Origin: Kiritimatiellia bacterium
Lineage (GTDB): Bacteria; Verrucomicrobiota; Kiritimatiellia; WLWN01
Reading direction: 5' to 3'
Length of the DNA stretch: 64,000 nucleotides
Assembly: GCA_012103575.1 (NCBI GenBank)
Contig: WLWN01000001.1
Location: 1,676,538-1,740,537, forward strand
The notes under the pieces were generated by a model. The model was not told the DNA's origin and made no database searches. It saw only the letters and a list, made by a program, of their open reading frames with translations. Shown in pieces: positions 6,174 through 58,693 of this stretch (position 1 is its first letter; each line of letters begins with the position of its first letter). A program made the translations under genes and the position numbers.

Positions 6174-7308
6174 ATGACTAAACAGGAAGCATATATTGCG
6201 TTAAACATGATCGAAGGACTCGACCCTGTACGTGTGAGATCTTTGATCGAGACGTTGGGCGCTGCTGAAGCAATCTTTGATGCAACACCCGATGAATTGA
6301 TGAAAGCGCATGGCGTAGGTATTGAGCTTTCTCGTACGATTACAGAAAGACGAGCTGAAATTGATCCACTTGATGAGATTAAAAAAGCGAAAAAGTGGGG
6401 TGCCCGGATCATAACATTATTTGATGATGAATATCCTGAGCTCTTAAAAACAATATATGATCCACCCCTTGCTCTTTATGTTAAGGGAACCCTTGAAAAG
6501 GAAGATCGCCGTTCTATCGCGATTGTGGGCTCGCGAAGAAGTACGCATTATGGGCAACAAGGTCGCTGATCGCATTGCCTATCAGCTTGCTCAGACGGGG
6601 TTTACAGTGGTGAGCGGATTAGCTCGAGGTATTGATACGGCAGGACATCGAGGCACTTTAAAAGGGAAAGGACGGACATTCGCTGTGTTGGGTAGCGCAT
6701 TGGACTGTTTGTATCCGGCTGAAAATGCTGAGTTAGCAGATCAAATTGCTAAGCACGGTGCTGTCATCTCTGAATATCCGTTGGGAAGAGAGCCCGATCG
6801 AACGACTTTCCCATATCGGAACCGTATCGTAAGTGGATTGTCGATGGGTGTCCTTGTCGTAGAAGCGCCATTTAAAAGTGGAGCGTTGATCACAGCCGAC
6901 ATGGCTTTAGAGCAAGGACGAAGTGTTTTCGCTGTCCCCGGACGCATTGACACGCCTTCATCACGCGGAACTCATCGATTAATTAAAAATGGAGCTCGAC
7001 TTGTTGATGATATAGAAGACATTATCCACGAGTTTGAGTTTTTGATCACCGAAGAGGCCCAAGCGTCCTGTTCAGAGTCTCTCTCTATTAAGTTTACAGA
7101 AGATGAGGAGGCGATTATTGAGGTCCTCTGTGAGGGTGAATGTGATGTGGATACATTAGCGCAACGCACTCAGCTGAATGTATCTAAAATCAGTTCATTG
7201 TTAATTGGGCTTGAAATGAAACGAATTATCCGGATGCTACCGGGTCGGATAGTAGCTTTAGCGATGGATATAAAGTTAGAAAGATTATCAGATGGAGCGA
7301 GTCATTAG
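6174..7308 (+). pseudogene. dprA: DNA-processing protein DprA (Smf) with a +1 frameshift near 6557
   Basis: The ORFs 6174-6569 and 6457-7308 are both DprA-like. The sequence reads ...IAIVGSRRSTHYGQQ and then continues in another frame as VADRIAYQLAQTGFTVVSGLARGIDTAGH. One extra G occurs in caacaaGgtcgct. Confidence 0.7.
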
Positions 7309-10010: not shown

Positions 10011-10976
10011 GTGGATATAGAAAAAGACCCTTGTATCGCCCATTTTATCCGTTATCTCGAAACGGGAAAAAATGCTTCGGAACATACGGTTCATAACTAT
10101 CTTTTAGACATTCGTCAATTTGTCTCTCAGAGTTGGGGTGAGGAGAAAAAAGCCCCTTTTCCCTGGAAAGAAACGGACCGTTTCACAGCTAGAAAATTTC
10201 TTGTTTTCTTCCAAAAATTAGACAGTGCTCCTACAACAACCTCTCGTAAACTTTCGAGTTTAAGGTCGTTTTACAAATTTTTATTACGCGAAGAGTACGT
10301 AACGACCAATCCTTTTACCCATGCTCCTTTGCCCAAAAAAGAAAGTCGATTGCCGCAGGTACTTTCTGTGGATGAAGTAGATCGCTTATTGGCAACACCG
10401 AAACGCTTGATATCGAAAGATGAAAAAACTAAAAAATTATCTAAAAGCATTTGGGATACCTATGCCGCGCTCCGAGATGCGGCGCTATTAGAGATGCTAT
10501 ACAGCACGGGTATGCGTATTAACGAATTAGCTACCTTAACGGCAGGACAAGTTGATATCCTCTCTGGTGTGGTTAAAGTACGAGGAAAAGGTAAAAAAGA
10601 AAGATTGTGTCCTTTGGGAGAGCCCGCGATTCGTGCATTCCAAGAAGCGTTAGATCAACGCGATCTGTTCTGGAGTACCGTTGGTAAGACAGGGCCTCCT
10701 CCAGCACTTTTTCTCAATAAAAATGCGGGTGGCCTAACGGTACGATCGATTGAAAGAGTAATGAAAAAGTATCTAGCCAAAGCGAGTTTGAACATCCATT
10801 ATTCTCCTCATTCACTGCGTCATAGTTTTGCCACCCATATGTTAGATGCAGGTGCAGACTTGCGTAGTGTACAGGAATTGTTGGGCCATAGTAGTCTCTC
10901 AACAACACAGATATATACGCATATATCGGTTCAGCATTTAAAGGAAGTGTATTCAAAATCACACCCACGGGCGTGA
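10011..10976 (+). CDS. Tyrosine site-specific recombinase of the XerC/XerD family
   Basis: There is an N-terminal SAM-like domain and a C-terminal catalytic domain with the [36 protein letters not shown] signature. The start is a GTG. Confidence 0.85.
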   Translation: MDIEKDPCIAHFIRYLETGKNASEHTVHNYLLDIRQFVSQSWGEEKKAPFPWKETDRFTARKFLVFFQKLDSAPTTTSRKLSSLRSFYKFLLREEYVTTNPFTHAPLPKKESRLPQVLSVDEVDRLLATPKRLISKDEKTKKLSKSIWDTYAALRDAALLEMLYSTGMRINELATLTAGQVDILSGVVKVRGKGKKERLCPLGEPAIRAFQEALDQRDLFWSTVGKTGPPPALFLNKNAGGLTVRSIERVMKKYLAKASLNIHYSPHSLRHSFATHMLDAGADLRSVQELLGHSSLSTTQIYTHISVQHLKEVYSKSHPRA

Positions 10977-13907: not shown

Positions 13908-15053
13908 GAAGACAAAAAAAAGAGAAAGACATGGAACAAATCAAGAGTAGTATTCATCCCCGAAAAGGCAAGCATTTGACACAGAAAGAACGGATCATGA
14001 TTGAAACAATGCTCAAAAACCGAGGACGTCCTTTGGAGATAGCCAGCTATCTGGGAAGGCATCGTCGAACCATAGAGCGCGAAATTAAACGTGGGGAGGT
14101 AGAGCATTTCGATACAGAGCTGCGAAAGAAGAAAGCATACAGCAGTGATCGAGCCCAGGAACTTCATGATCTAAATGCGACGGCCAAGGGACCTGAGCTT
14201 AAGCTTGGAAAGCATCATGAAACGGCCGTGTTTATCAGCGAGCACATTCTTGTTCACAAACGCTCACCCGATGTGGTTGCTCCTTTGCTTAAACAAGAGC
14301 AGAGACCTGCAGCGGTGAGTACAAAAACGCTGTATACCTATATTGACCAAGGTCTCATCCCGGGGGTGAGCAACGAGTCCCTATGGGAAAAACGAAAACG
14401 GATAAAACGAAAAAGACGTGCTATTAAGCGGGTTAAAAAGCAACATGCCCGAAGGACCAGTATCGAAAAACGACCTAAGACCGTAGAAAAACGCGAGGAA
14501 TCTGGGCACTGGGAATTGGATTTGATCGTCGGCGGAAAAGGAACTTCAAAACCGGTTTTAATGACGTTAGTAGAAAGAAAGACCCGAATGCTAAGGGTGA
14601 GAAAACTTTCGGATAAAACACAGGCATCGGTTCTGCAGGCCCTCAAAGCGATCGAAAGATCGATGGGAGTTGGCCCATTCAGATCGATGTTCAAGTCGAT
14701 TACAGCCGATAACGGGAGCGAGTTTCTCGACGTGGAGCAGATGGAACGTTCCGGATTTAGCAAAAAGAGACGTGTTAAACTCTATTATGCTCACCCGTAT
14801 TCTTCCTGGGAACGAGGCTCCAACGAAAATGCCAACCGTATGGTTTGTCGTTTCGTCGCCAAAGGAGACAACATCGGAAAATATACCATCGACCGTATTG
14901 GTGAGATTGAAAAATGGATTAACAACTATCCTCGCAAGATCCTAGAATACAAACCCGCACAGGAGTGTTTCGATTTGGAGATCGCCGCATGAACAGAAGC
15001 TCTCAGGTCCATTTTTTGCGGCATTTAATTTTACAATCCACCTTGGTGATTTG
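13908..15053 (+). mobile_element. IS30-family insertion sequence, type B, copy with a truncated left end
   Basis: Near-identical to 42078-43283 from 13908 onward. The right end (ggcatttaattttacaatccacc) is shared with the other copy, while the left terminal repeat present in that copy (ttgtaatattaaatgcc) is missing here. Confidence 0.7.
13931..14992 (+). CDS. IS30-family transposase, type B
   Basis: 353-aa ORF with an HTH, HWELD and DNGSEF DDE motifs. It is 98% identical to 42188-43234, apart from a 15-bp indel in a KRKR repeat. Confidence 0.85.
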   Translation: MEQIKSSIHPRKGKHLTQKERIMIETMLKNRGRPLEIASYLGRHRRTIEREIKRGEVEHFDTELRKKKAYSSDRAQELHDLNATAKGPELKLGKHHETAVFISEHILVHKRSPDVVAPLLKQEQRPAAVSTKTLYTYIDQGLIPGVSNESLWEKRKRIKRKRRAIKRVKKQHARRTSIEKRPKTVEKREESGHWELDLIVGGKGTSKPVLMTLVERKTRMLRVRKLSDKTQASVLQALKAIERSMGVGPFRSMFKSITADNGSEFLDVEQMERSGFSKKRRVKLYYAHPYSSWERGSNENANRMVCRFVAKGDNIGKYTIDRIGEIEKWINNYPRKILEYKPAQECFDLEIAA

Positions 15054-15136: not shown

Positions 15137-16196
15137 CTGCAGACTCAACTTACAAGTGCAAAACCGAAGCTGTCCATCATTTCTTTGGGCGTTCTATATT
15201 CTAAGCATTTTCTCGGTCTATTATTCAGTAACTCCACAGCCATCTCAACTGAGCGGAGCTGCGGGCAGCAAAGTCGGTTTTCTTCGGGAAAAACTGGCGA
15301 AGCAAACCATTCGTGTTTTCGTTGCTCCCTCTTTGCCAAGGGTTTCTCCCTTCAGCAAAGAAAATGGGGGTTGCTATTTTTTTCTGTAGTTTAGCATGGC
15401 TGGCAAACTCCATGCCATTATCTACAGTCACCGTTTTACAGGGGAGCCCTGAATCAGCGAACTGAGGTACGGAACGGTTGACCGATTCGGCATTGCATCG
15501 AGGTAAAAGATCGGCGATGAGATATCGAGTCGCTCGATCTACTAGAGTGACTACACAGGCCTCTTTTCTCGTTTGGCCCTGAATAGTGTCACCTTCCCAA
15601 TGGCCTGCCACCTTGCGACTTTCACCCTCTTCGGGGCGTTGGTCAATCATCGTTTGGTTGTGTATACGTGAATGGCTTTTCCGAGTCGCTCGTTTTTTCT
15701 TTCCGGGGCCACGCAGGTATTTTCGGTAGCCAGCCCCTCTTGGACTGTACAAGTAGCGGTAGATCGTCATTCGACTGATGGGAGGGTCACCTTCTAGCTT
15801 TCTTCGACCTTCAACCTGTTCTGGAGACCAATACTTCGCCAGGAGAGTCTCCACTTGTTCTTTGCTAGCTCCCATCACTTTTTGAGGCTTTCGAGCTAGC
15901 TGTAATCGGCTTTGAGCCAGGCCATTTGCGGGTCTTGGGTAATAGCGGCCACGGACTCGATTACGGCGAAATTCGCGCCAAATAGTCGAGGGGGATCGGC
16001 CCAGGTGACGGCCAATTTGAGATAAGCTATATTTTTCTTTTAGCATCTGGGCTATCACTTCTCGTTCATAACGGTTTAAATGTTCGTAGGTTCGTGGCAT
16101 TCTATGTTCTCCTTTGGGGAGGGTCAGATACCCAAAGAATGAACTATGCTGCGGACCTTTGCACTTGTATTGTTACTCTACCAAAAACGTAGTGTT
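15137..16196 (-). mobile_element. IS30-family insertion sequence, type A, copy 2
   Basis: The same terminal sequences as 104-1170 are present. The flanking DNA differs. Confidence 0.8.
15225..16100 (-). pseudogene. IS30-family transposase, type A, with a frameshifted C-terminus
   Basis: Identical to 113-1069 except that the last ~30 aa shift frame. The intact C-terminus (VELLNNRPRKCLEYRTPKEMMDSFGFALVS) is encoded by the overlapping ORF 15145-15339. Confidence 0.7.
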
Positions 16197-17380: not shown

Positions 17381-19037
17381 CTGAATCCGTTAGCTATCGC
17401 TTCGGAAGGCGTTTTGGGGCTCAAAAGCTGAAAATTTTTTCCTTGAGATGCTCGCTTTTGGGCGGATTGGGACCGGCAAGTATCACCCTGATGAATTTTT
17501 TGAGCGTACAGGTCAGATTCACTCTGATTTGGCCATTTTGGGGCGTAGGCCTCCTTGGGCAGTCGCCTTAGAGTATTGTTAAAGGTGCACGGAGGGCTAT
17601 GCGAAGGAATGGGCAATATCTTGTATCACTTCAAACCAGCGACAACGCTTGCCAAAGTGAAGTTCAATTCGTCCGGCGTGGCGGACCAATCGAACCGCGC
17701 AATAAACGATATTTTTGAGAACCGTTTTGATTCGCCAGCGCGGGATGTTGATTTTCTGCGGGGCAAGCCCAGCCCGTTTGATGACCTCTTGGCCAAGACC
17801 GCGCAATAGGTTGAAGGCCACCATGGCGCATAACAGAATAATCTTATTGGCACAGGGTCTCCCCGAAGGCAATCGCTCAACATCAAGATCGCTTTTGAGT
17901 TCACTGTGGTACTGCTCGCTGGGGCCATGTCCATGATAGAGATCTAGCACCGTCTTGGCACGACAAGAGAGGTTCGTCCACCAGGTGTTCACCTCAAGTT
18001 TAGGAACCAAAAGTTTCTGACCATCGATATCGATGGTGCGTTCAATCACTTCGAAGGCCACCGGGACACAAGGGTGGTTTTGGTCACCACCGGGATGGAA
18101 ATGATCGAAAAAGCCTGTGTAAACGTTCTTGCCTTCACGACTGTCTTGTTTGTCTCCAACTCGGCGTGCAAGGGCCAGCATTTGTTCAGGACATTCGCGG
18201 CGAGGATTTCGCTTTACGATAAAATAATGATCCCCAAAAGCGTCGAAGTTATCGGCCGCAGCGTTGCCACTATCAAGCCGAAGCAAACATTTTCCACCCA
18301 GGCCCAGGGTTTGGAGCGTTTCAACGCTGCGGGCAATAAACGCGGTCGTTCCCGACTGACAATGTTGTTTGCCGGGTCGAAGTTCGCACTCAAGCATGTG
18401 GCCTTGAGTGCCCACATAGGCAAATATCGGGGCGTAACCATCATGGCCCTTATAGGTGTAGGAAACGCCTTCTTTCGAAGAGCCTGAGTGATCCAAAGGG
18501 CTCACATCGATATCGACGGGAACAAGATCAAGCCCTTCGACATCTACCTAGCCAAAGGGGCCCGAGGAAAGAAGTTCGGTGTTGAGTTTGCGTAGCCCCA
18601 CATGGGTTCTGGCTGGGGGCAGGTCGTCGAAACGACGTCGGAACACCGGCTCAGAGGCTACTTTTTTAACTCCCCTTTTTAAGTCTAAAGGCATTCATAA
18701 AAATCTCATCACCCCGGTACAGGTCGATATCATTGAAATCGGTTCGACCGTTGCAAAGTAAGCCGATCTGGGTAAGGAGGATCTCCCGATCAGAGATCGC
18801 ATCGGAGCGGCGTGGTTGAAAATTGGAGGGAAGAATCCGTTGAGCATGATCCTCAAGCAGCAGGCCGCAAAGATGATTTCCGCTTGTGCTGTTGAGTTCG
18901 CTCTTGCCAGTCTTTATTTTATATTGTTTCATATACACACCTGTTGGGGTGGGGTTGTTTGTTTGAATACGGGTATGCTCCCCGCTTTAGCCCAACAGGT
19001 AATGAAAAATCGTCAGATTTTATCTGACGGATTCAGG
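17381..19037 (-). mobile_element. IS1380-family insertion sequence, copy 1
   Basis: The terminal inverted repeats are CCTGAATCCGTCAG and CTGACGGATTCAGG. The element is flanked by ATTGAC on both sides, a candidate target-site duplication. It is near-identical to 56075-57730. Confidence 0.75.
17597..18938 (-). pseudogene. IS1380-family transposase, frameshifted
   Basis: The N-terminal 90 aa are encoded by 18666-18938 and the C-terminal 302 aa by 17597-18505. The two parts lie in different frames. Confidence 0.7.
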
Positions 19038-19198: not shown

Positions 19199-19275
19199 TG
19201 GTGGCGAAGGTGGGACTCGAACCCACGACACATGGCTTATGAAGCCACTGCTCTAACCGACTGAGCTACTTCGCC
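19199..19275 (-). tRNA. tRNA with anticodon CAU (elongator tRNA-Met or tRNA-Ile2)
   Basis: The minus-strand sequence reads GGCGAAGTAGCTCAGTCGGTTAGAGCAGTGGCTTCATAAGCCAC...GGGTTCGAGTCCCACCTTCGCCACCA. This is a full cloverleaf with anticodon loop TTCATAA and an encoded CCA. The G1-C72 pair argues against initiator identity. Confidence 0.85.
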
Positions 19276-19324
19276 ACAAAAAACATATAACCGTAAGGAA
19301 GTATAATAGGCTTTGTCAATACTC

Positions 19325-19360
19325 AGCCATTCTAATTTTGATTTCAAAATTAGAATGGCT
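19325..19360. repeat. Perfect 36-bp AT-rich hairpin (16-bp stem, 4-nt loop) placed directly upstream of the tRNA promoter region
   Basis: The sequence is AGCCATTCTAATTTTGATTTCAAAATTAGAATGGCT. It is followed (in the tRNA direction) by TTGACA about 35 bp before the tRNA 5' end. A related copy lies at 37683-37718. Confidence 0.6.
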
Positions 19361-27611: not shown

Positions 27612-28271
27612 TTGAAGATATATCTTAAAAGAATACTTGCCCTGACTTTTTTTGTTTCTTTAACCACAAACGGTTTGTCTGCTGATGATGGCGATTGGCA
27701 AATATGGTTTGATCAAAGCATGGAGGGTAAGCTTTCTTCATCGTTAAAAACAAAGATGAATCAGCAATTAAAGTGGGGTGACCATGCGGGAGAACTGGTT
27801 GAATATAACGTTGAGCTTGGTTTAACGACAAAGCTGAGTAGTTGGTTTGACCTGGCCCTTTTCTATCGACAACAATATGAAAAAAAGGGAGCCGATTGGT
27901 TAGAAGAAAACCGTCCTCACCTAAACGGGACCATTAAATGGAAGTGGAACGACATCTCCTTTTCAGATCGTAGTCGTGTTGAACTTAGGATTAAAGAAAA
28001 TAAAAACGATATTGTACGGTATAGGAATAAAATAACCGTTACATGCCCAAAGACCTGGACAAAATTCAACATTCAAAAATATATCGCTGACGAAATTTTC
28101 ATCGATTCCGACAAAGGAGAGCTTAATCGAAACCGTTTGTATGTGGGGTTAAAAGCAAAGCCTCATGAACATCTTAAAGCCGATGTATATGGGTTGTGGC
28201 AGACTTCAGAAAAAAGCGACGAATGGACTGATGTTTACGTTGTGGGAGCAAAGTTAGGCATTGTTTTTTAG
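27612..28271 (+). CDS. Hypothetical secreted or outer-membrane protein (DUF2490-like)
   Basis: A signal peptide is followed by alternating amphipathic beta-strand-like segments. The start is a TTG. Confidence 0.4.
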   Translation: MKIYLKRILALTFFVSLTTNGLSADDGDWQIWFDQSMEGKLSSSLKTKMNQQLKWGDHAGELVEYNVELGLTTKLSSWFDLALFYRQQYEKKGADWLEENRPHLNGTIKWKWNDISFSDRSRVELRIKENKNDIVRYRNKITVTCPKTWTKFNIQKYIADEIFIDSDKGELNRNRLYVGLKAKPHEHLKADVYGLWQTSEKSDEWTDVYVVGAKLGIVF

Positions 28272-28446
28272 AAGAAGTTCAGGTTTTCTGAAAACGCTAC
28301 TTGGACCTTCGTCAAAAGCGCGAATTCAAGTAGTAAGTGCAATATTCTTTGAGATAAGAGAAATGAAAACTTTATTGAACATTTGGTTAGGAGTTTTGTA
28401 TCCACGGGTTTTTCTGGGTCTATTATTAGAGCGCTTCACGATTGAG

Positions 28447-29417
28447 GTGTCGCGATGTAGCACGAAGAAAACCAGCCGATTACCTCGTCGGGAGAAACCT
28501 CTTCGAACGCTTGTGTGAGCGCTTCAGATAGTTCCTGCGGGCTGCAAGGCTGCCCAACCGATTCTTTATCTTGCCCCACATTTTTTCAATGGGGTTGGAA
28601 TCGGGGCTGTAGGGTGGAAGGAATCTTACATGGGCCCCACATGACTCAATGAGTTTAATGACCTTGGGATTGTGATGGACGCGAAGATTGTCCATGATGA
28701 CGATGTCTTCAGGTGAAAGAGTCGGGAGAAAAACCCGGCGAATATATTCTCCAAAAACAGCCGTGTCTGTCGCCCCCTCCCTCTCCATGGCCGCTGTTGT
28801 TCCGTCCAGGCGGACTGAAAAAATCAAGGTGGTGGTACACCAATGTCCATGAGGCGTTTTGGCAAAAAGCCTGTTCCCGCCCAACGCCCGGCCCCGCAGA
28901 CAAGTCATATTCGTTTTCGCCCCGGATTCATCAATAAAGACAAGGCGACTTGGATCAAGTTTGGCTACCTCTTGGATCCACTGCTTTCTCAAGAGATTTA
29001 CATCCGCCCGGTCTTGCTCGCTGGCGTGAAGCGTTTCTTTTATACCGGCAGCCCAACCGATTCAACGCCCGCTGTACGGCCATGATCGACCCCTTCACGC
29101 CGCTCATGTTCTTGAGTTCTTCAAGCGTTGCATCGGGATGTTTGCCCCCCAGTTGAGCCAACGCCTTGAGCTGCTCGCTGTAGAGGGCCTGACGATGCCC
29201 ACGCGGTCGGGGAGCGGTCTGTCCGGTTTCGTTGAAACGAGAGAGCCCACGCTGAAACGTTCTAAGATCTACACGATAAGAAGATACGATATCGGCCTGG
29301 GAACCTTTGCCCATTTTGTAGGCATCTATCGCACGCCGCCGGATTTCTGCTGTTGCTATACTCATGTCATGGAGCATAGATCTTCTAAAGAGGCATTTCA
29401 ATCGTTAAATGCTCTAG
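28447..29417 (-). mobile_element. IS630/Tc1-family insertion sequence, copy 1 (degenerate)
   Basis: Ends TAGAGCGCTTCACGATTGAG and CAATCGTTAAATGCTCTAG form terminal inverted repeats next to TA. The transposase frames (28480-28992 and 28955-29401) are frameshifted and carry the DDE region HWCTTTLI...VRLDGT. A second copy lies at 45006-45949. Confidence 0.7.
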
Positions 29418-29926
29418 CTTTGCCTTGGCCATTGAGCTCACGAAATTTGTATATAGCAACAGTACTTTCTTTACTGCTCTCTTGGTATGCAAAAAATGCA
29501 GCTACGTATGGCGACCGAGTCCAATCTAGTAAAGGCGTCGGAAAACCATGATGCCGAATATAAACCATAAATCCGTAATTCTCAGGAGATGAAGGTTCAT
29601 CTCTATTCTCAAATACTGTTTCCCAGTTTTGATCTGTTAGCGATTCAAATGCCGCGATTGTCGGCTTAAGGATCTTTGTGTTGTATTCTATGATTGCAAG
29701 TAGTTCATCGTTTCGTCTTTCAAGTGTCGATTCAAGTTTCCACGAAGCACATTTATGGCCCCTAAAGAGGAGCTCGGAAAAATAGTAGTCCGCTTTGCTA
29801 AGGCGCTGCTCACCCTTTTGTAATTCCTTTTAGCCCAAATGGTTCGTGCAGAAAACCGCGTTTAACTGACGGATCCAGGATAGAGTTATCTGGAATTAAT
29901 TCGGTATATCTTTTTGACATAGACAT
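29398..29926 (-). pseudogene. Disrupted small gene encoding an FRG-motif protein, sitting in the cassette position upstream of intI
   Basis: There is a 144-codon open frame (29398-29829) with no start codon, reading ...YYFSELLFRGHKCASWKLESTLERR...YIRHHGFPTPLLDWTRSPYVAAFFAY.... An ATG-initiated 15-codon segment (29926 downward) lies in another frame. A partial 163-bp-family repeat sits between the two segments. The C-terminal codons run into the IS630 terminal repeat. Confidence 0.4.
29813..29879. repeat. Partial (one-arm) copy of the 163-bp palindromic repeat family
   Basis: ttttgtaattccttttagcccaaatggttcgtgcagaaaaccgcgtttaactgacggatccagg matches one arm of the elements at 44474, 51319 and 58518. 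The left boundary is approximate. Confidence 0.5.
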
Positions 29927-30005: not shown

Positions 30006-30993
30006 ATGAAGGCAACTTCAAAACCTAAAAAATTGCTTGATCAGGTTCGAGAAATCTTGCGAATCCATCATTATTCCATTCGAACGGAGCAGTCTTATGT
30101 AAAATGGGTCAAGGATTATATTTTTTTTAACGGGAAGAAACATCCTCAAGAAATGGGAATTCCTGAAGTCGAACGGTTTTTGACCCATCTTGCTGTCAAT
30201 AAAAATTTGGCTTCAGGAACCCAAAACTAGGCGTTAAATGCCCTTGTTTTCCTCTACAAAAAAGTGTTGAGAAAACCTTTGGGTGAAAAGATCAATGCGG
30301 TTCGAGCGCGGAAGAAACAGCGATTACCGGTTGTTCTAAGTAAAGAGGAAGTTAGCCGCCTTTTAAAGGCTATGTCTGGCGTCCATGAGCTTATGGCACA
30401 ATTGATGTATGGCTGTGGGCTTCGGGTTATGGAAGTATTACGTTTACGGGTACAGGAGCTAGATTTTGATCAGGGGCTGCTTCTGGTTCGTCGCGGTAAG
30501 GGCGATAAAGATCGCTCTACTATCTTGCTGCCCGAATTACATGTGCCTCTGAAGGATCACGTAATCTTTGTCAGAAAACTGTATGAACAAGATGTAGAGA
30601 ATGGTACTTGCAATGTATATCTTCCTCATGCCCTTGCACAAAAGTATCGAGGGGGGCCCCGCGCATGGAACTGGCAATATGTATTCGCGTCCAAAAGCCT
30701 CTCTGTTGACCCTCGAGCAGGTGTAAGGCGTCGTCACCATATGGATGAAAGCAGTATTCAAAAATCGGTGGTGCATGCTGCTTGTTTGGTATAGATCCCC
30801 CAAGAAAGTTACCTGTCAGACCTTACGCCATTCTTTTGCTACTCATCTACTCGAAGCAGGGACCAATATTTGCATGGTACAAGAGCTTTTGGGTCATAAA
30901 GATGTAAAAACAACACAGATCTATACTCATGTTATGAAAAGAGACTTTCATCAGATCAAAAGCCCGTTAAGTATGTTGCTTCAGGCTACCTGA
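30006..30993 (+). pseudogene. intI: Integron integrase (IntI-family tyrosine recombinase) with an in-frame TAG and frameshifts near the C-terminus
   Basis: N-terminus LLDQVREILRIHHYSIRTEQSYVKWVKDYIFF. The IntI-specific additional domain reads [55 protein letters not shown]. The catalytic C-terminus reads [41 protein letters not shown] at 30228-30230; frame changes around 30775-30800. Confidence 0.85.
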
Positions 30994-31017: not shown

Positions 31018-31254
31018 ATGATTACGAAAGCTACAAGCTGTACCCTTGTTCTGGTCTTGAGTTTGTGCTGCTCTTGTTCAAAGAAATGGTATGTAAACGA
31101 TCAAGGTGTTACTGGCGATATTTTTACGTGTATCCCGGGCGACAACACAAAAGGAACAAGCAGTAAAAAGAAACCTTTTGCAATAGTTAACGTTACTGTC
31201 GAGCACACACGATTTTCAACAAATAAAAAGGGAACCATAAAATCTTCAGTATGA
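31018..31254 (+). CDS. Hypothetical small lipoprotein
   Basis: A signal peptide with a lipobox-like LSLCC sequence. 78 aa, followed by a GC-rich hairpin (ccccgg...ccgggg) around 31260-31290. Confidence 0.3.
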   Translation: MITKATSCTLVLVLSLCCSCSKKWYVNDQGVTGDIFTCIPGDNTKGTSSKKKPFAIVNVTVEHTRFSTNKKGTIKSSV

Positions 31255-31466
31255 CCCTCCCCCGGACATCCCTCTTATCCCGGGGCATACCTCTGCGCTC
31301 AACTGGATTATCTGGGTTCAACAACGCAACGAATAATTGCATCTTATAATCGACTTAGGGTATAAACACATTTCGATAAATGTTGAACTGGCATCTTGTT
31401 TTCGTGGAGAGTGGTCTTATGGACCGGTCACATCTTTAAAATACCAACGTGTTACAAGGAGTACGG

Positions 31467-37386: not shown

Positions 37387-37682
37387 GGCAGTCGGGATTG
37401 TAAAATCTGGAGAAAGATAAAGCCCAAGGTCTTGAAGGCGAGGTGAATTACTTTAAGGCGCACCGCGACCCTATAGATTATCAGGCTGCTAAATGAGGGG
37501 GTTGCCCTAAAGGGTCTGGAGCCATGGAATCGACCTGTGCCCAATTCCAAACCCGATTCAAACGAACCGGTCAATTTTGGATACCTCCTAGAAAGCATCA
37601 CTTAATCGCTCTGGAATTAGCACGGCAGAATCATGACGGGGATGATATTTGGTAGTATGACCCAGATGCGCCTCAAATAACT

Positions 37683-37718
37683 AGCCGTTCTAATTTTGAT
37701 TTCAAATTTCAAATGGCT
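37683..37718. repeat. Imperfect copy of the AT-rich hairpin, again directly upstream of a tRNA promoter-like hexamer
   Basis: AGCCGTTCTAATTTTGATTTCAAATTTCAAATGGCT, with TTGACT at 37724-37729 and tRNA-Val starting at 37768. Confidence 0.45.
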
Positions 37719-37767: not shown

Positions 37768-37842
37768 GGGCGGTTAGCTCAGCGGGAGAGCGGCTGGTTT
37801 ACACCCAGTAGGTCACAGGTTCGAATCCTGTACCGCCCACCA
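37768..37842 (+). tRNA. tRNA-Val (anticodon UAC)
   Basis: GGGCGGTTAGCTCAGCGGGAGAGCGGCTGGTTTACACCCAGTAGGTCACAGGTTCGAATCCTGTACCGCCCACCA. Anticodon loop TTTACAC; CCA encoded. Confidence 0.9.
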
Positions 37843-42077: not shown

Positions 42078-43283
42078 GAGAATTGTAATATTAAATGCCC
42101 AAAAGAAGATATTGTAAAACAGGAGTGTTCCATGCCGAAATCTTCTAGATTTAGAAACTCGACAGAAGACAAAAAAAGGAGAAAGACATGGAACAAATCA
42201 AGAGTAGTATTCATCCCCGAAAAGGCAAGCATTTGACACAGAAAGAACGGATCATGATTGAAACAATGCTCAAAAACCCAGGACGTCCTTTGGAGATAGC
42301 TAGCTATCTGGGAAGGCATCGTCGAACCATAGAGCGCGAAATTAGACGTGGAGAGGTAGAGCATTTCGATACAGAGCTGCGAAAGAAGAAAGCATACAGC
42401 AGTGATCGAGCCCAGGAACTTCATGATCTAAATGCGACGGCCAAGGGACCTGAGCTTAAGCTTGGAAAGCATCATGAAACGGCCGTGTTTATCAGCGAGC
42501 ACATTCTTGTTCACAAACGCTCACCCGATGTGGTTGCTCCTTTGCTTAAACAAGAGCAGAGACCTGCAGCGGTGAGTACAAAAACGCTGTATACCTATAT
42601 TGACCAAGGTCTCATCCCGGGGGTGAGCAACGAGTCCCTATGGGAAAAACGAAAAAGACGTGCTATTAAGCGGGTTAAAAAGCAACATGCCCGAAGGACC
42701 AGCATCGAAAAACGACCTAAGACCGTAGAAAAACGCGAGGAATCTGGGCACTGGGAATTGGATTTGATCGTCGGCGGAAAAGGAACTTCAAAACCGGTTT
42801 TAATGACGTTAGTAGAAAGAAAGACCCGAATGCTAAGGGTGAGAAAACTTTCGGATAAAACACAGGCATCGGTTCTGCAGGCCCTCAAAGCGATCGAAAG
42901 ATCGATGGGAGTTGGCCCATTCAGATCGATGTTCAAGTCGATTATAGCCGATAACGGGAGCGAGTTTCTCGACGTGGAGCAGATGGAACGTTCCGGATTT
43001 AGCAAAAAGAGACGTGTTAAACTCTATTATGCTCACCCGTATTCTTCCTGGGAACGAGGCTCCAACGAAAATGCCAACCGTATGGTTCGTCGTTTCGTCG
43101 CCAAAGGAGACAACATCAGAAAATATACCATCGACCGTATTGGTGAGATTGAAAAATGGATTAATAACTATCCTCGCAAGATCCTAGAATACAAACCCGC
43201 ACAGGAGTGTTTCGATTTGGAGATCGCCGCATGAACAGAAGCTCTCAGGTCCATTTTTTGCGGCATTTAATTTTACAATCCAC
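42078..43283 (+). mobile_element. IS30-family insertion sequence, type B, complete copy
   Basis: Left end ttgtaatattaaatgcc pairs with right end ggcatttaattttacaatccacc. It abuts the IS1380 fragment on the left and the recR start on the right. Confidence 0.75.
42188..43234 (+). CDS. IS30-family transposase, type B
   Basis: 348 aa; see 13931-14992. Confidence 0.85.
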   Translation: MEQIKSSIHPRKGKHLTQKERIMIETMLKNPGRPLEIASYLGRHRRTIEREIRRGEVEHFDTELRKKKAYSSDRAQELHDLNATAKGPELKLGKHHETAVFISEHILVHKRSPDVVAPLLKQEQRPAAVSTKTLYTYIDQGLIPGVSNESLWEKRKRRAIKRVKKQHARRTSIEKRPKTVEKREESGHWELDLIVGGKGTSKPVLMTLVERKTRMLRVRKLSDKTQASVLQALKAIERSMGVGPFRSMFKSIIADNGSEFLDVEQMERSGFSKKRRVKLYYAHPYSSWERGSNENANRMVRRFVAKGDNIRKYTIDRIGEIEKWINNYPRKILEYKPAQECFDLEIAA

Positions 43284-44473: not shown

Positions 44474-44636
44474 CCTGGATCCGTCAGTTAAACGTGGGAT
44501 TTCTGTGCGAATGGTTTGGAGGCAAAAGGTTGCAAAAAAACGCAGGCGCACCCGCTGGGTACGTCGAGGCTTTTTTGTAATTCCTTTTGGCCCAAATGGT
44601 TCGTGCAGAAAACCGCGTTTAACTGACGGATCCAGG
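44474..44636. repeat. 163-bp palindromic repeat element, copy A
   Basis: Terminal arms CCTGGATCCGTCAGTTAAACG and CGTTTAACTGACGGATCCAGG, with a largely self-complementary interior and a central palindrome. Copies lie at 51319-51481 and 58518-58680 (the latter inverted). Confidence 0.7.
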
Positions 44637-45005
44637 TTTTTGTGTACAAAAACTGAATCCGACCGTAGGGCTCGAAATAGAACCTACTCCAAACGCCCTC
44701 TGTCTGACTTTCATTGGCACAGAGGGCGAGAGGGTTCGTGGAGATTTTCTGTTGACCCCCTCCAACTTCTGAAATGAAACATGGCTTAAACATATTTCAT
44801 CCTTCTCTCAGATCAAGCGCCTTCGCCTAGGCGTAGGTTGTGTGATCCGCATAAATATTGGCAAGTTAGGAAGGTCCGGTTGAATTTGGTCTCTCGTAAT
44901 TATCGCACAAGTCCTTTAAAAGCGTGCGAAAACTGTGAACCGGTATGCCTTCATAAGCAGGCTTGAGATAGTTAATCAACTGGATCATCGTTTTCAATAA
45001 CTTAG

Positions 45006-45949
45006 AGCGCTTCACGATTGAGGTGTTGCGATGTAGCACGAAGAAAACCAGCCGATTACCTCGTCGGGAGAAACCTCTTCGAACGCTTGTGTGATCGCTT
45101 CAGATAGTTCCTGCTGACTGCGGGCTGCAAGGCTGCCCAACCGATTCTTTATCTTGCCCCACATTTTTTCAATGGGGTTGGAATCGGGGCTGTAGGGTGG
45201 AAGGAATCTTACATGGGCCCCACATGACTCAATGAGTTCAATGACCTTGGGATTGTGATGGACGCGAAGATTGTCCATGATGACGATATCTTCAGGTGAA
45301 AGAGTCGGGAGAAAAAGTTGTTCCGTCCAGGCGGACCGAAGAAATCAAGGTGGTGGTACACCAATGTCCATAAGGCGTTTTGGCAAAAAGCCTGTTCCCG
45401 CCCAACGCCCGGCCCCGCAGACGAGTCATATTCGTTTTCGCCCCGGATTCATCAATAAAGACAAGGCGACTTGGATCAAGTTTGGCCACCTCTTGGATCC
45501 ACTGCTTTCTCAAGAGATTTACATCCGCCCGGTCTTGCTCGCTGGCGTGAAGCGTTTCTTTTATACCGGGAAACCGATTCAACGCCCGCTGTACGGCCAT
45601 GATCGACCCCTTCACGCCGCTCATGTTCTTGAGTTTTTCAAGCGTTGCATCGGGATGTTTGCCCCCCAGTTGAGCCAACGCCTTGAGCTGCTTTCTGCTG
45701 TAGAGGGCCTGACGATGCCCACGCGGTCGAGGAGCGGTCTGTCCGGTTTCGTTGAAACGAGAGAGCCCACGCTGAAACGTTCTAAGATCTACACGATAAG
45801 AAGATGCGATATCGGCCTGGGAACCTTTGCCCATTTTGTAGGCATCTATCGCACGCCGCCGGATTTCTGCTGTTGCTATACTCATGTCATGAAGTATAGA
45901 TTTTCTAGCGAGGCATTTTCAATCGTTAAATGCTCTAGTACTCCTCCAA
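45006..45949 (-). mobile_element. IS630/Tc1-family insertion sequence, copy 2 (degenerate)
   Basis: Same terminal repeats as copy 1. Transposase fragments 45012-45278 and 45292-45885 lie in different frames. Confidence 0.7.
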
Positions 45950-51318: not shown

Positions 51319-51481
51319 CCTAGATCCGGCAGCTAAACGTGGGGTTTCTGTGCGAATGCCTTGGAGACAAAAGATTGCAAAAAAACGTAGGCGCACCCAC
51401 GGGGTGCGTCGAGGCTTTTCTCTAATTCCTTTTGGCCCAAATGATTCGTGCAGAAAACCGCGCTTAACCGCCGGATCTAGG
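51319..51481. repeat. 163-bp palindromic repeat element, copy C (diverged)
   Basis: Same architecture as copy A. The arms (CCTAGATCCGGCAGCTAAACG and its complement) carry paired compensatory changes relative to copy A. It fills the ybaB-mutL spacer. Confidence 0.7.
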
Positions 51482-56074: not shown

Positions 56075-57730
56075 CTGAATCCGTCAGATAAAATCTGATG
56101 ATTTTTCATTACCTGTTGGGCTAAAGCGGGGAGCATACCCGTATTCAAACAAACAACCCCACCCCAACAGGTGTGTATATGAAACAATATAAAATAAAGA
56201 CTGGCAAGGGCGAACTCAACAGCACAAGCGGAAATCATCTTTGCGACCTGCTGCTTGAGGATCATGCTCAACGGATTCTTCCCTCCAATTTTCAACCACG
56301 CCGCTCCGATGCGATCTCTGATCGGGAGATCCTCCTTACCCAGATCGGCTTACTTTGCAACGGTCGAACCGATTTCAATGATATCGACCTGTACCGGGGT
56401 GATGAGATTTTTATGAATGCCTTTGGACTTAAAAAGGGGAGTTAAAAAGGTAGCCTCTGAGCCGATGTTCCGACGTCGTTTCGACGACCTGCCCCCACCC
56501 AGAACCCATGTGGGGCTACGCAAACTCAACACCGAACTTCTTTCCTCGGGCCCCTTTGGCTAGGTAGATGTCGAAGGGCTTGATCTTGTTCCCGTCGATA
56601 TCGATGTGAGCCCTTTGGATCACTCAGGCTCTTCGAAAGAAGGCGTTTCCTACACCTAGAAGGGCCATGATGGTTACGCCCTGATATTTGCCTATGTGGG
56701 CACTCAAGGCCACATGCTTGAGTGCGAACTTCGACCCGGTAAACAACATTGTCAGTCGGGAACGACCGCGTTTATTGCCCGCAGCGTTGAAACGCTCCAA
56801 ACCCTGGGCCTGGGTGGAAAATGTTTGCTTCGGCTTGATAGTGGCAACGCTGCGGCCGATAACTTCGACGCTTTTGGGGATCATTATTTTATCGTAAAGC
56901 GAAATCCTCGCCGCGAATACCCTGAACAAATGCTGGCCCTTGCACGCCGAGTTGGAGACAAACAAGACAGTCGTGAAGGCAAGAACGTTTACACAGGCTT
57001 TTTCGGTCATTTCCATCCCGGTGGTGACCAAAACCGCCCTTGTGTCCCGGTGGCCTTCGAAGTGATTGAACGCACTATCGATATCGATGGTCAGAAACTT
57101 CTGGTTCCTAAACTTGAGGTGAACACCTGGTGGACGAACCTCTCTTGTCGTGCCAAGACGGTGCTAGATCTCTATCATGGACATGGCCCCAGCGAGCAGT
57201 ACCACAGTGAACTCAAAAGCGATCTTGATGTTGAGCGATTGCCTTCGGGGAGACTCTGTGCCAATAAGATTATTCTGTTATGCGCCATGGTGGCCTTCAA
57301 CCTATTGCGCGGTCTTGGCCAAGAGGTCATCAAACGGGCTGGGCTTGCCCCGCAGAAAATCAACATCCCGCGCTGGCGAATCAAAACGGTTCTCAAAAAT
57401 ATCGTTTATTGCGCGGTTCGATTGGTCCGCCACGCCGGACGAATTGAACTTCACTTTGGCAAGCGTTGTCGCTGGTTTGAAGTGATACAAGATATTGCCC
57501 ATTCCTTCGCATAGCCCTCCGTGCACCTTTAACAATACTCTAAGGCGACTGCCCAAGGAGGCTTACGCCCCAAAATGGTCAAATCAGAGTGAATCTGACC
57601 TGTACGCTCAAAAAATTCATCAGGGTGATACTTGCCGGTCCCAATCCGCCCAAAAGCGAGCATCTCAAGGAAAAAATTTTCAACTTTTGAGCCCCAAAAC
57701 GCCTTCCGAAGCGATAGCTGACGGATTCAG
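56075..57730 (+). mobile_element. IS1380-family insertion sequence, copy 2
   Basis: Termini CCTGAATCCGTCAG and CTGACGGATTCAG, flanked by ATTAGA on both sides. The transposase is split between 56173-56445 and 56696-57514, in different frames. Confidence 0.75.
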
Positions 57731-58517: not shown

Positions 58518-58680
58518 TCCTGGATCCGTCAGTTAAACGCGGTTTTCTGCACGAACCATTTGGGCCAAAAGGAATTACAAAAAAGCCTCGACGCACCCAG
58601 CGGGTGCGCCTGCATTTTTTTGCAACCTTTTGCCTCCAAAGCATTCGCACAGAAATCCCACGTTTAACTGACGGATCCAG
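58518..58680. repeat. 163-bp palindromic repeat element, copy B (inverted relative to copy A)
   Basis: Near-identical to copy A in reverse-complement orientation. The central palindrome reads CGCACCCAGCGGGTGCG. Confidence 0.7.
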
Positions 58681-58693
58681 GATAGTGTCAAAG

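Follow-up and report, generated by a model that had tools for sequence, protein, structure and literature searches.

An integron integrase pseudogene in the genome of a Kiritimatiellia bacterium

The intI locus and its host

The window, by which we mean the whole 64-kb stretch of DNA that was analysed, carries an integron integrase (intI) pseudogene flanked on its left by an ABC transporter gene, queG, a DUF2490 gene and then an IS630-family element, and on its right by a 78-aa ORF and dnaE. The features of the locus are as follows, in order of position.

28425-29417, minus strand: IS630-family element with a frameshifted transposase (Pfam DDE_3 and HTH_29, boundary alignment)
29418-29813, minus strand: fragment of an FRG-domain gene, divergent from intI (PF08867, E = 8e-21, model positions 2-92 of 94)
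29814-29880, no strand assigned: right-hand ~66 nt of a 163-nt palindromic MITE-like repeat, recognized by its match to full copies
30006-30993, plus strand: intI pseudogene, full length in three frame segments (TIGR02249, 2A3V, tree)
30228-30230, plus strand: in-frame TAG nonsense codon with loss of a conserved Gln, probably CAG to TAG (homologues read STQNQALNA)
30630-30761, plus strand: IntI-specific additional domain (gap-free alignment to IntI1, Vibrio IntI and 2A3V)
30783-30801, plus strand: frame-breaking junction (relatives read ...AKNKAGID-KRVT...)
30817-30819, plus strand: CAG (Gln) in place of the catalytic His of the HxxR motif (His in 122 of 122 IntIs)
31316-31388, plus strand: lone inverted repeat with perfect RYYYAAC / GTTRRRY cores (GTTCAAC...GTTGAAC), found by core search

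The gene directly downstream encodes the DnaE protein NKB24453.1 of a MAG labelled 'Kiritimatiellia bacterium'. Storey et al. (2020) described 'Candidatus Patea custodiens' (Kiritimatiellaeota, WCHB1-41) as the pateamine producer in the sponge Mycale hentscheli (PMC7157528; also PMC7196800), with an assembly that is a single contig of 3.09 Mb and with metagenome BioSamples SAMN12718690-94 (PMC7157528), and we infer that the window belongs to this Kiritimatiellota symbiont. The initial annotation, made from the letters of the sequence, had spoken of a host-restricted, IS-ridden genome, and such a description fits a sponge symbiont of this kind well. At least eight IS copies or fragments are present in the 64 kb, at the following positions.

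113-1069, 13931-14992, 15225-16100, 17597-18505, 28425-29417, 41543-41842/57243-57542, 42188-43234, 45001-45938 and 56696-57514: IS copies or fragments

They include two IS30-like families (two pairs), an IS630 pair and several DDE_Tnp_1_4 fragments, and several of the copies are frameshifted or internally deleted, a sign that the IS expansion is itself in decay. The natural-transformation gene dprA, at 6174-7308 on the plus strand, is split into overlapping ORFs of 131 and 261 aa; two other assemblies, one of them a Logan short-read assembly, show the gene split in the same way, and dprA is probably also a pseudogene. We also note a 43-nt repeat with a palindrome (AATACTCAGCCATTCTAATTTTGATTTCAAAATTAGAATGGCT) that is present at 19318-19360 and at 37676-37718, beside two tRNA genes (19202-19275, minus strand, and 37768-37839, plus strand).

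Identity of the integrase gene and its lesions

Integron integrases are tyrosine recombinases with an extra domain that lets them recombine a folded single-stranded attC site with attI, and their function is the capture and excision of gene cassettes. Three open pieces on the plus strand (30006-30230, 30264-30794 and 30745-30993) had initially been put together as a full-length enzyme of this type, and the reconstruction holds from end to end. Frame 0 starts with the ATG at 30006, runs directly on past the TAG and finishes with the codon that ends at 30782 (...SVVHAA), and frame +1 extends from 30802 to the TGA at 30991-30993; both peptides quoted in the initial annotation are present verbatim, the IntI insertion in frame 0 and the later peptide in frame +1. 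The reconstructed protein matches the IntI-specific NCBIfam model TIGR02249 over its full length (1-315 of 315) with 422.5 bits, against a curated cutoff of 265 bits, and since E is 1e-126 over the whole model, chance resemblance is excluded. The top match among solved structures is the Vibrio cholerae integrase IntI4, or VchIntIA (PDB 2A3V; E = 6.8e-92), with residues 11-325 aligning to positions 6-320 of 2A3V and no gaps in the extra domain. The best 120 database relatives are integron integrases with 49-62% identity, mostly from MAGs of marine Gammaproteobacteria, Mariprofundaceae, Chloroflexota and Deltaproteobacteria, and the closest annotated integron integrases are 55-62% identical. When a collection of genomes was scanned with the reconstructed protein, distant IntIs (37-55% identity) were the only matches, with no Kiritimatiellia relative among them.

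Pfam recognizes in the protein only the generic Phage_integrase and SAM-like domains, which are common to all tyrosine recombinases and would equally suit a recombinase of the Xer or phage type. Several other lines of evidence oppose such an assignment. The XerC, XerD and XerA models give 132-152 bits, which is under their cutoffs of 220-335 bits (XerC and XerD score about 133 against about 330), and the Xer chains among solved structures align only with N- or C-terminal stretches, with E-values of about 1e-29 or weaker. The genome moreover has its own Xer, encoded at 10011-10976. In an alignment that took in IntI1 (plasmid locus L013), a Vibrio IntI (L014) and three close relatives, the insertion that had been singled out as IntI-specific is gap-free against the integron integrases, and both the window's Xer and E. 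coli XerD are gapped there. The phylogeny suggested at the outset as a check places the reconstructed protein with IntI and away from XerC and XerD: in a neighbour-joining tree, a distance method, with E. coli XerC, E. coli XerD and the window's Xer as three outgroups, the split between the Xers and the IntIs plus the window gene is found in 200 of 200 bootstraps, and the gene lies inside the IntI clade beside a marine gamma- and zetaproteobacterial group. An Xer-type or phage-type identity is thus refuted by profile scores, extra domain and tree, and we give it practically no chance of being correct; by the same sequence comparisons the gene is confirmed as a genuine, full-length integron integrase gene.

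The reading frame of this gene is broken at three places. The TAG at 30228-30230, already recorded in the initial annotation, is codon 75, where homologues have Gln, and TAG is an ordinary stop in this genome, ending 4 of 17 long ORFs. The annotation had also recognized at least two frame changes farther downstream, one of them at a C5 run, and these are found in the 19 nt that separate ...HAA (to 30782) from KKVT (from 30802). Only 2 nt (30783-30784) stand in place of two codons of the relatives, after which F-G-I-D is encoded in frame +2 at 30785-30796, corresponding to the 'GID-K' of the closest relatives; the C5 run at 30797-30801 is extra by comparison with the relatives, and frame +1 picks up with a Lys codon at 30802. 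The frame accordingly passes from 0 to +2 to +1 across 30783-30801, and we read the junction as the product of two distinct events that each broke the frame, one of them at the C5 run.

The residues encoded are altered as well. The HxxR region reads T-C-Q-TLRHSF, as against T-x-H-TLRHSF in the IntIs, such that among the catalytic residues R140, K168, R275, H298 and Y307 are kept and H272 is replaced by Gln. In an alignment of 122 IntIs, 97 columns are conserved to 95% or more; the window gene departs from them at six, and intact homologues at a median of one. Three of the six sites (D151E, H272Q and R290C) are invariant in 122 of 122 IntIs. This combination of lesions and substitutions indicates that the gene has probably been decaying under relaxed constraint, either since its inactivation or in parallel with it. 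With a TAG, two frameshifts and the catalytic His lost, intI is predicted to be non-functional, in agreement with the original proposal.

The lesions might instead be sequencing or assembly errors, or variants of one strain in a population that carries an intact, functional intI; the reference contig is from a PacBio plus Illumina hybrid assembly, and one lesion does lie at a homopolymer (C5). However, the TAG is a substitution and not a homopolymer indel, the junction has a multi-nucleotide deficit plus 5 extra bases relative to homologues and is not a single homopolymer slip, and the replaced catalytic His and two more altered invariant residues add to the damage. A 74-aa fragment ending at the TAG is recorded on eight contigs, of which five were retrieved, and these five other assemblies (WLWG01003376, WLWF01010858, WLWE01032610, ERZ23499465 and ERZ23499542) are 100% identical across the whole of intI, short-read-only assemblies from different specimens being among them. 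The WLWE, WLWF and WLWG records are NCBI WGS assemblies and the two ERZ records are ENA assemblies of SAMN12718691 and SAMN12718692; as the latter are probably re-assemblies of samples behind some of the WLW* records, the number of independent specimens is at least two or three, all from one sponge population. With complete identity in all five assemblies, which represent no fewer than two or three sponge specimens, we regard the lesions as real, and errors or strain-specific variants as an extremely unlikely source of them.

attC sites, cassettes and flanking repeats

A search of the window with Rfam at gathering thresholds gave an SRP RNA and two tRNAs as its only matches, with no attC. Two hand-written scanners were dropped, as neither told a real array apart from background: one based on minimum free energy found 1-2 of about 13 sites in the array of control locus L011, and an R/L-box scorer gave similar densities in array and non-array DNA. 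L011 served as positive control; on its 2.59-Mb contig an intact relative of the window gene (P0057, 56% identical) stands beside a divergent run of small ORFs that is over 10 kb long, and two more relatives with shorter arrays (L009 and L012) were used as further controls. Fifteen attC sites curated from these arrays were built into a covariance model (R1), for which we prescribed the canonical R''/R' and L''/L' stems, unpaired spacers and a single extrahelical base in the L''/L' stem. R1 recovered all of its training sites, 11 sites in the unseen Vibrio superintegron L014 (E-values 2e-6 to 1e-4) and 2 sites in the unseen class 1 array L013; a rebuilt model from 31 sites (R2) gave E-values of 1e-15 to 2e-3 on the four control arrays and found a third class 1 site. 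In the training arrays the models detect 16 sites, in the unseen Vibrio array 11 and in the unseen class 1 array 3, the last out of about 5 class 1 attCs, and a divergent or lone attC could escape them.

Applied with filters off to the whole 64-kb window, R2 found no attC site, with a best E-value of 0.78 and 15 matches at E <= 10, which is about the chance expectation; none of these matches lies in the 0.6 kb between IS630 and intI, and none on the palindromic repeat. The search covered 64 kb of the 3.1-Mb genome. Within the limits of this home-made model, the window is therefore judged to hold no attC site or cassette array within about 30 kb on either side of intI, and the flanking genes likewise show no intact array, as had been stated initially. 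Since no attC lies within 4 kb, the distance in the IntegronFinder definition, the locus would be classed as In0-type with a pseudogenised intI. The window flanks are fully assembled. In the relatives' loci (L008-L012), contigs of short-read MAGs mostly end 0.1-2 kb from the 5' side of intI, presumably where repeated attC sites broke the assembly, and a full array is kept only in the long-read contig behind L011; because the contigs end so near to intI, the absence of an array is uninformative in short-read MAGs.

The fragment of a palindromic repeat that had been reported upstream of intI is present at 29814-29880, and its ends do superficially resemble attC cores, as was claimed. Full copies of the repeat are found elsewhere in the window.

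44474-44636, 51319-51481 and 58519-58681: full copies of the 163-nt repeat, intergenic among housekeeping genes, at about 7-kb spacing

A full copy folds as one continuous hairpin (-58.8 kcal/mol, z = -12) in which pairing runs through the GTTAAAC/GTTTAAC motifs, the supposed cores, and for 12 nt further to the termini. Given the continuous hairpin, the dispersed copies and no match to the attC model, identity with attC or descent from it was rejected for this repeat, and its architecture is that of a MITE/REP-like element and not of an attC. The 163-nt element is a near-perfect palindrome with 21-nt termini (CCTGGATCCGTCAGTTAAACG), and these match none of the IS ends in the window.

The disrupted small gene noted upstream proves to be the FRG-domain fragment. 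Its frame is uninterrupted from 29813 to the IS630 boundary at 29417/29418 and encodes a complete FRG domain, with the 5' end of the gene replaced by the MITE fragment and the 3' part interrupted by IS630. Inverted ends can be recognized on the IS630 element, a second copy of which, with an internal deletion, lies at 45001-45938, and when the element at 28425-29417 is removed in silico the FRG frame gains ~50 codons, reaching ~28275, and abuts the convergent DUF2490 gene. The remainder of an FRG cassette, with an attC, to the left of IS630 was rejected as a candidate, the only model match there (28172-28273, E = 3.5) being at chance level. Relative to intI the FRG gene has the position of a first cassette and the orientation of a cassette, and a gene for an FRG-domain protein is a cassette in the Vibrio superintegron L014 (NZ_CP049914.1, 5873-6871); by analogy with this one precedent, and from its position and orientation, the FRG gene is possibly a former cassette. 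The attI position of the relatives (...TAAC/GTTAATAAGCGGAA...) is about 100-170 nt upstream of intI, and the window at this position (about 29884-29905) reads GAGTTATCTGGAATTAATTCGG right after the MITE end, a weak resemblance to a type of site for which no model exists.

On the downstream side, the 78-aa ORF at 31018-31254 is lipoprotein-like and has no Pfam match, and the 73-nt inverted repeat at 31316-31388 lies between it and dnaE, 323 nt downstream of the intI stop. The ORF and the repeat could be a single surviving cassette in an 'inverted integrase' layout, with cassette and intI on the same strand, in which case the integron would not be wholly dead. The repeat is the sole perfect core pair in the 64 kb (0.43 expected per window from shuffles), its length is in the attC size range and it follows a small ORF without a Pfam match; about 1.5% of shuffles (P about 0.015) put such a pair within 500 nt of intI, a statistic computed after the repeat had been noticed. 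Yet the attC model gives it less than 1.5 bits even in a targeted search of 241 nt, and its fold (z about -2) is an outer stem around two separate small hairpins, in which no in-register L''/L' stem forms. Its perfect 7/7 cores are moreover untypical of real attCs (1 of 13 in L011, 0 of 11 in L014), and in every close relative that has an array, the array is upstream of intI and divergent from it. We consider a surviving cassette improbable; the repeat probably arose by chance or is an element upstream of dnaE, and its identity as an attC is not supported.

The locus among known integrons

Stops or frameshifts have turned nearly a third of the intI genes found in genomes into pseudogenes (Nemergut et al. 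2008, PMC2426708). In a survey of complete genomes, 51 of 215 IntI loci were In0 elements, which have IntI without attC sites, and the survey also notes integrons from Verrucomicrobia (Cury et al. 2016, PMC4889954). The description of an integron remnant in this genome as unexpected was thus an overstatement, and dead integrase genes are common enough for the window intI to be a correct but ordinary find. We found no literature linking integrons to Kiritimatiellota.

The In0 elements and 'pseudo-integrons' of these surveys (PMC4889954, PMC2426708) are the nearest counterparts, having like the window a chromosomal intI, a stop and frameshifts, and no attC within 4 kb; an internal stop or frameshift, the published mark of an intI pseudogene, is exactly what the window gene contains. 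Unlike them, the window is from a Kiritimatiellota sponge symbiont, and its attI and cassette side has been overwritten by a MITE fragment and IS630. The sedentary chromosomal integrons of marine Gamma- and Zetaproteobacteria (L011, L009 and L012; MAGs of Methylophaga, Cycloclasticus and Mariprofundaceae) contain the closest IntIs, at 55-62% identity, and are set among housekeeping genes as is the window intI, but they have an intact intI and upstream attC arrays and the window has neither. VchIntIA (IntI4, 2A3V) and the class 1 integrase IntI1 share with it the same domain architecture, including the extra domain, at 47-49% identity; they are active enzymes, whereas the window gene has Gln for the catalytic His and a frame broken three times. 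The intI2 gene of class 2 integrons is likewise an integron integrase gene inactivated by an internal stop (PMC2426708), although there the lesion is a single suppressible stop and the cassettes are kept, whereas the window intI has several independent lesions and no cassettes.

The locus is very probably a decaying relic of a chromosomal integron platform, of In0 type with a pseudogenised intI, in 'Candidatus Patea custodiens'. The ancestral gene would have encoded a canonical integron integrase that recombined attC with attI. The gene now carries a change of Gln to TAG at codon 75 and two indels just before HxxR and lacks the catalytic His, and mobile DNA has rebuilt the side expected to hold attI and the first cassette, with a truncated MITE-like palindrome now abutting the attI position and the divergent FRG gene, possibly the last cassette, split by IS630. 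In a host-restricted genome with expanding IS elements, selection may have been relaxed or may have acted against recombination, and the inactivation may be a result of this. The 55-62% identity of the closest relatives suggests that the platform was acquired from integrons of the marine proteobacterial type or shares ancestry with them.

A more ambitious reading, doubtful and with a small chance of being right, would make the locus the first integron trace known from Kiritimatiellota and a dated 'fossil' from the time when the ancestors of a defensive sponge symbiont were free-living. A platform of the marine proteobacterial type would then have been disabled and stripped of its cassettes during IS and MITE expansion after host restriction, with the 78-aa ORF and the repeat at 31316-31388, or else the FRG gene, possibly surviving as a domesticated former cassette.

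Taken as the decaying In0-type relic that we favour, the locus reveals no new mechanism and adds one more well-documented case to the frequent loss of integron integrases. It adds a Kiritimatiellota sponge symbiont, the producer of the drug lead pateamine, to the taxa in which integron traces are known, and provides a further marker of ongoing genome erosion, beside the IS expansion and split genes such as dprA. The relic also hints that an ancestor of this symbiont may have had access to the marine cassette pool.
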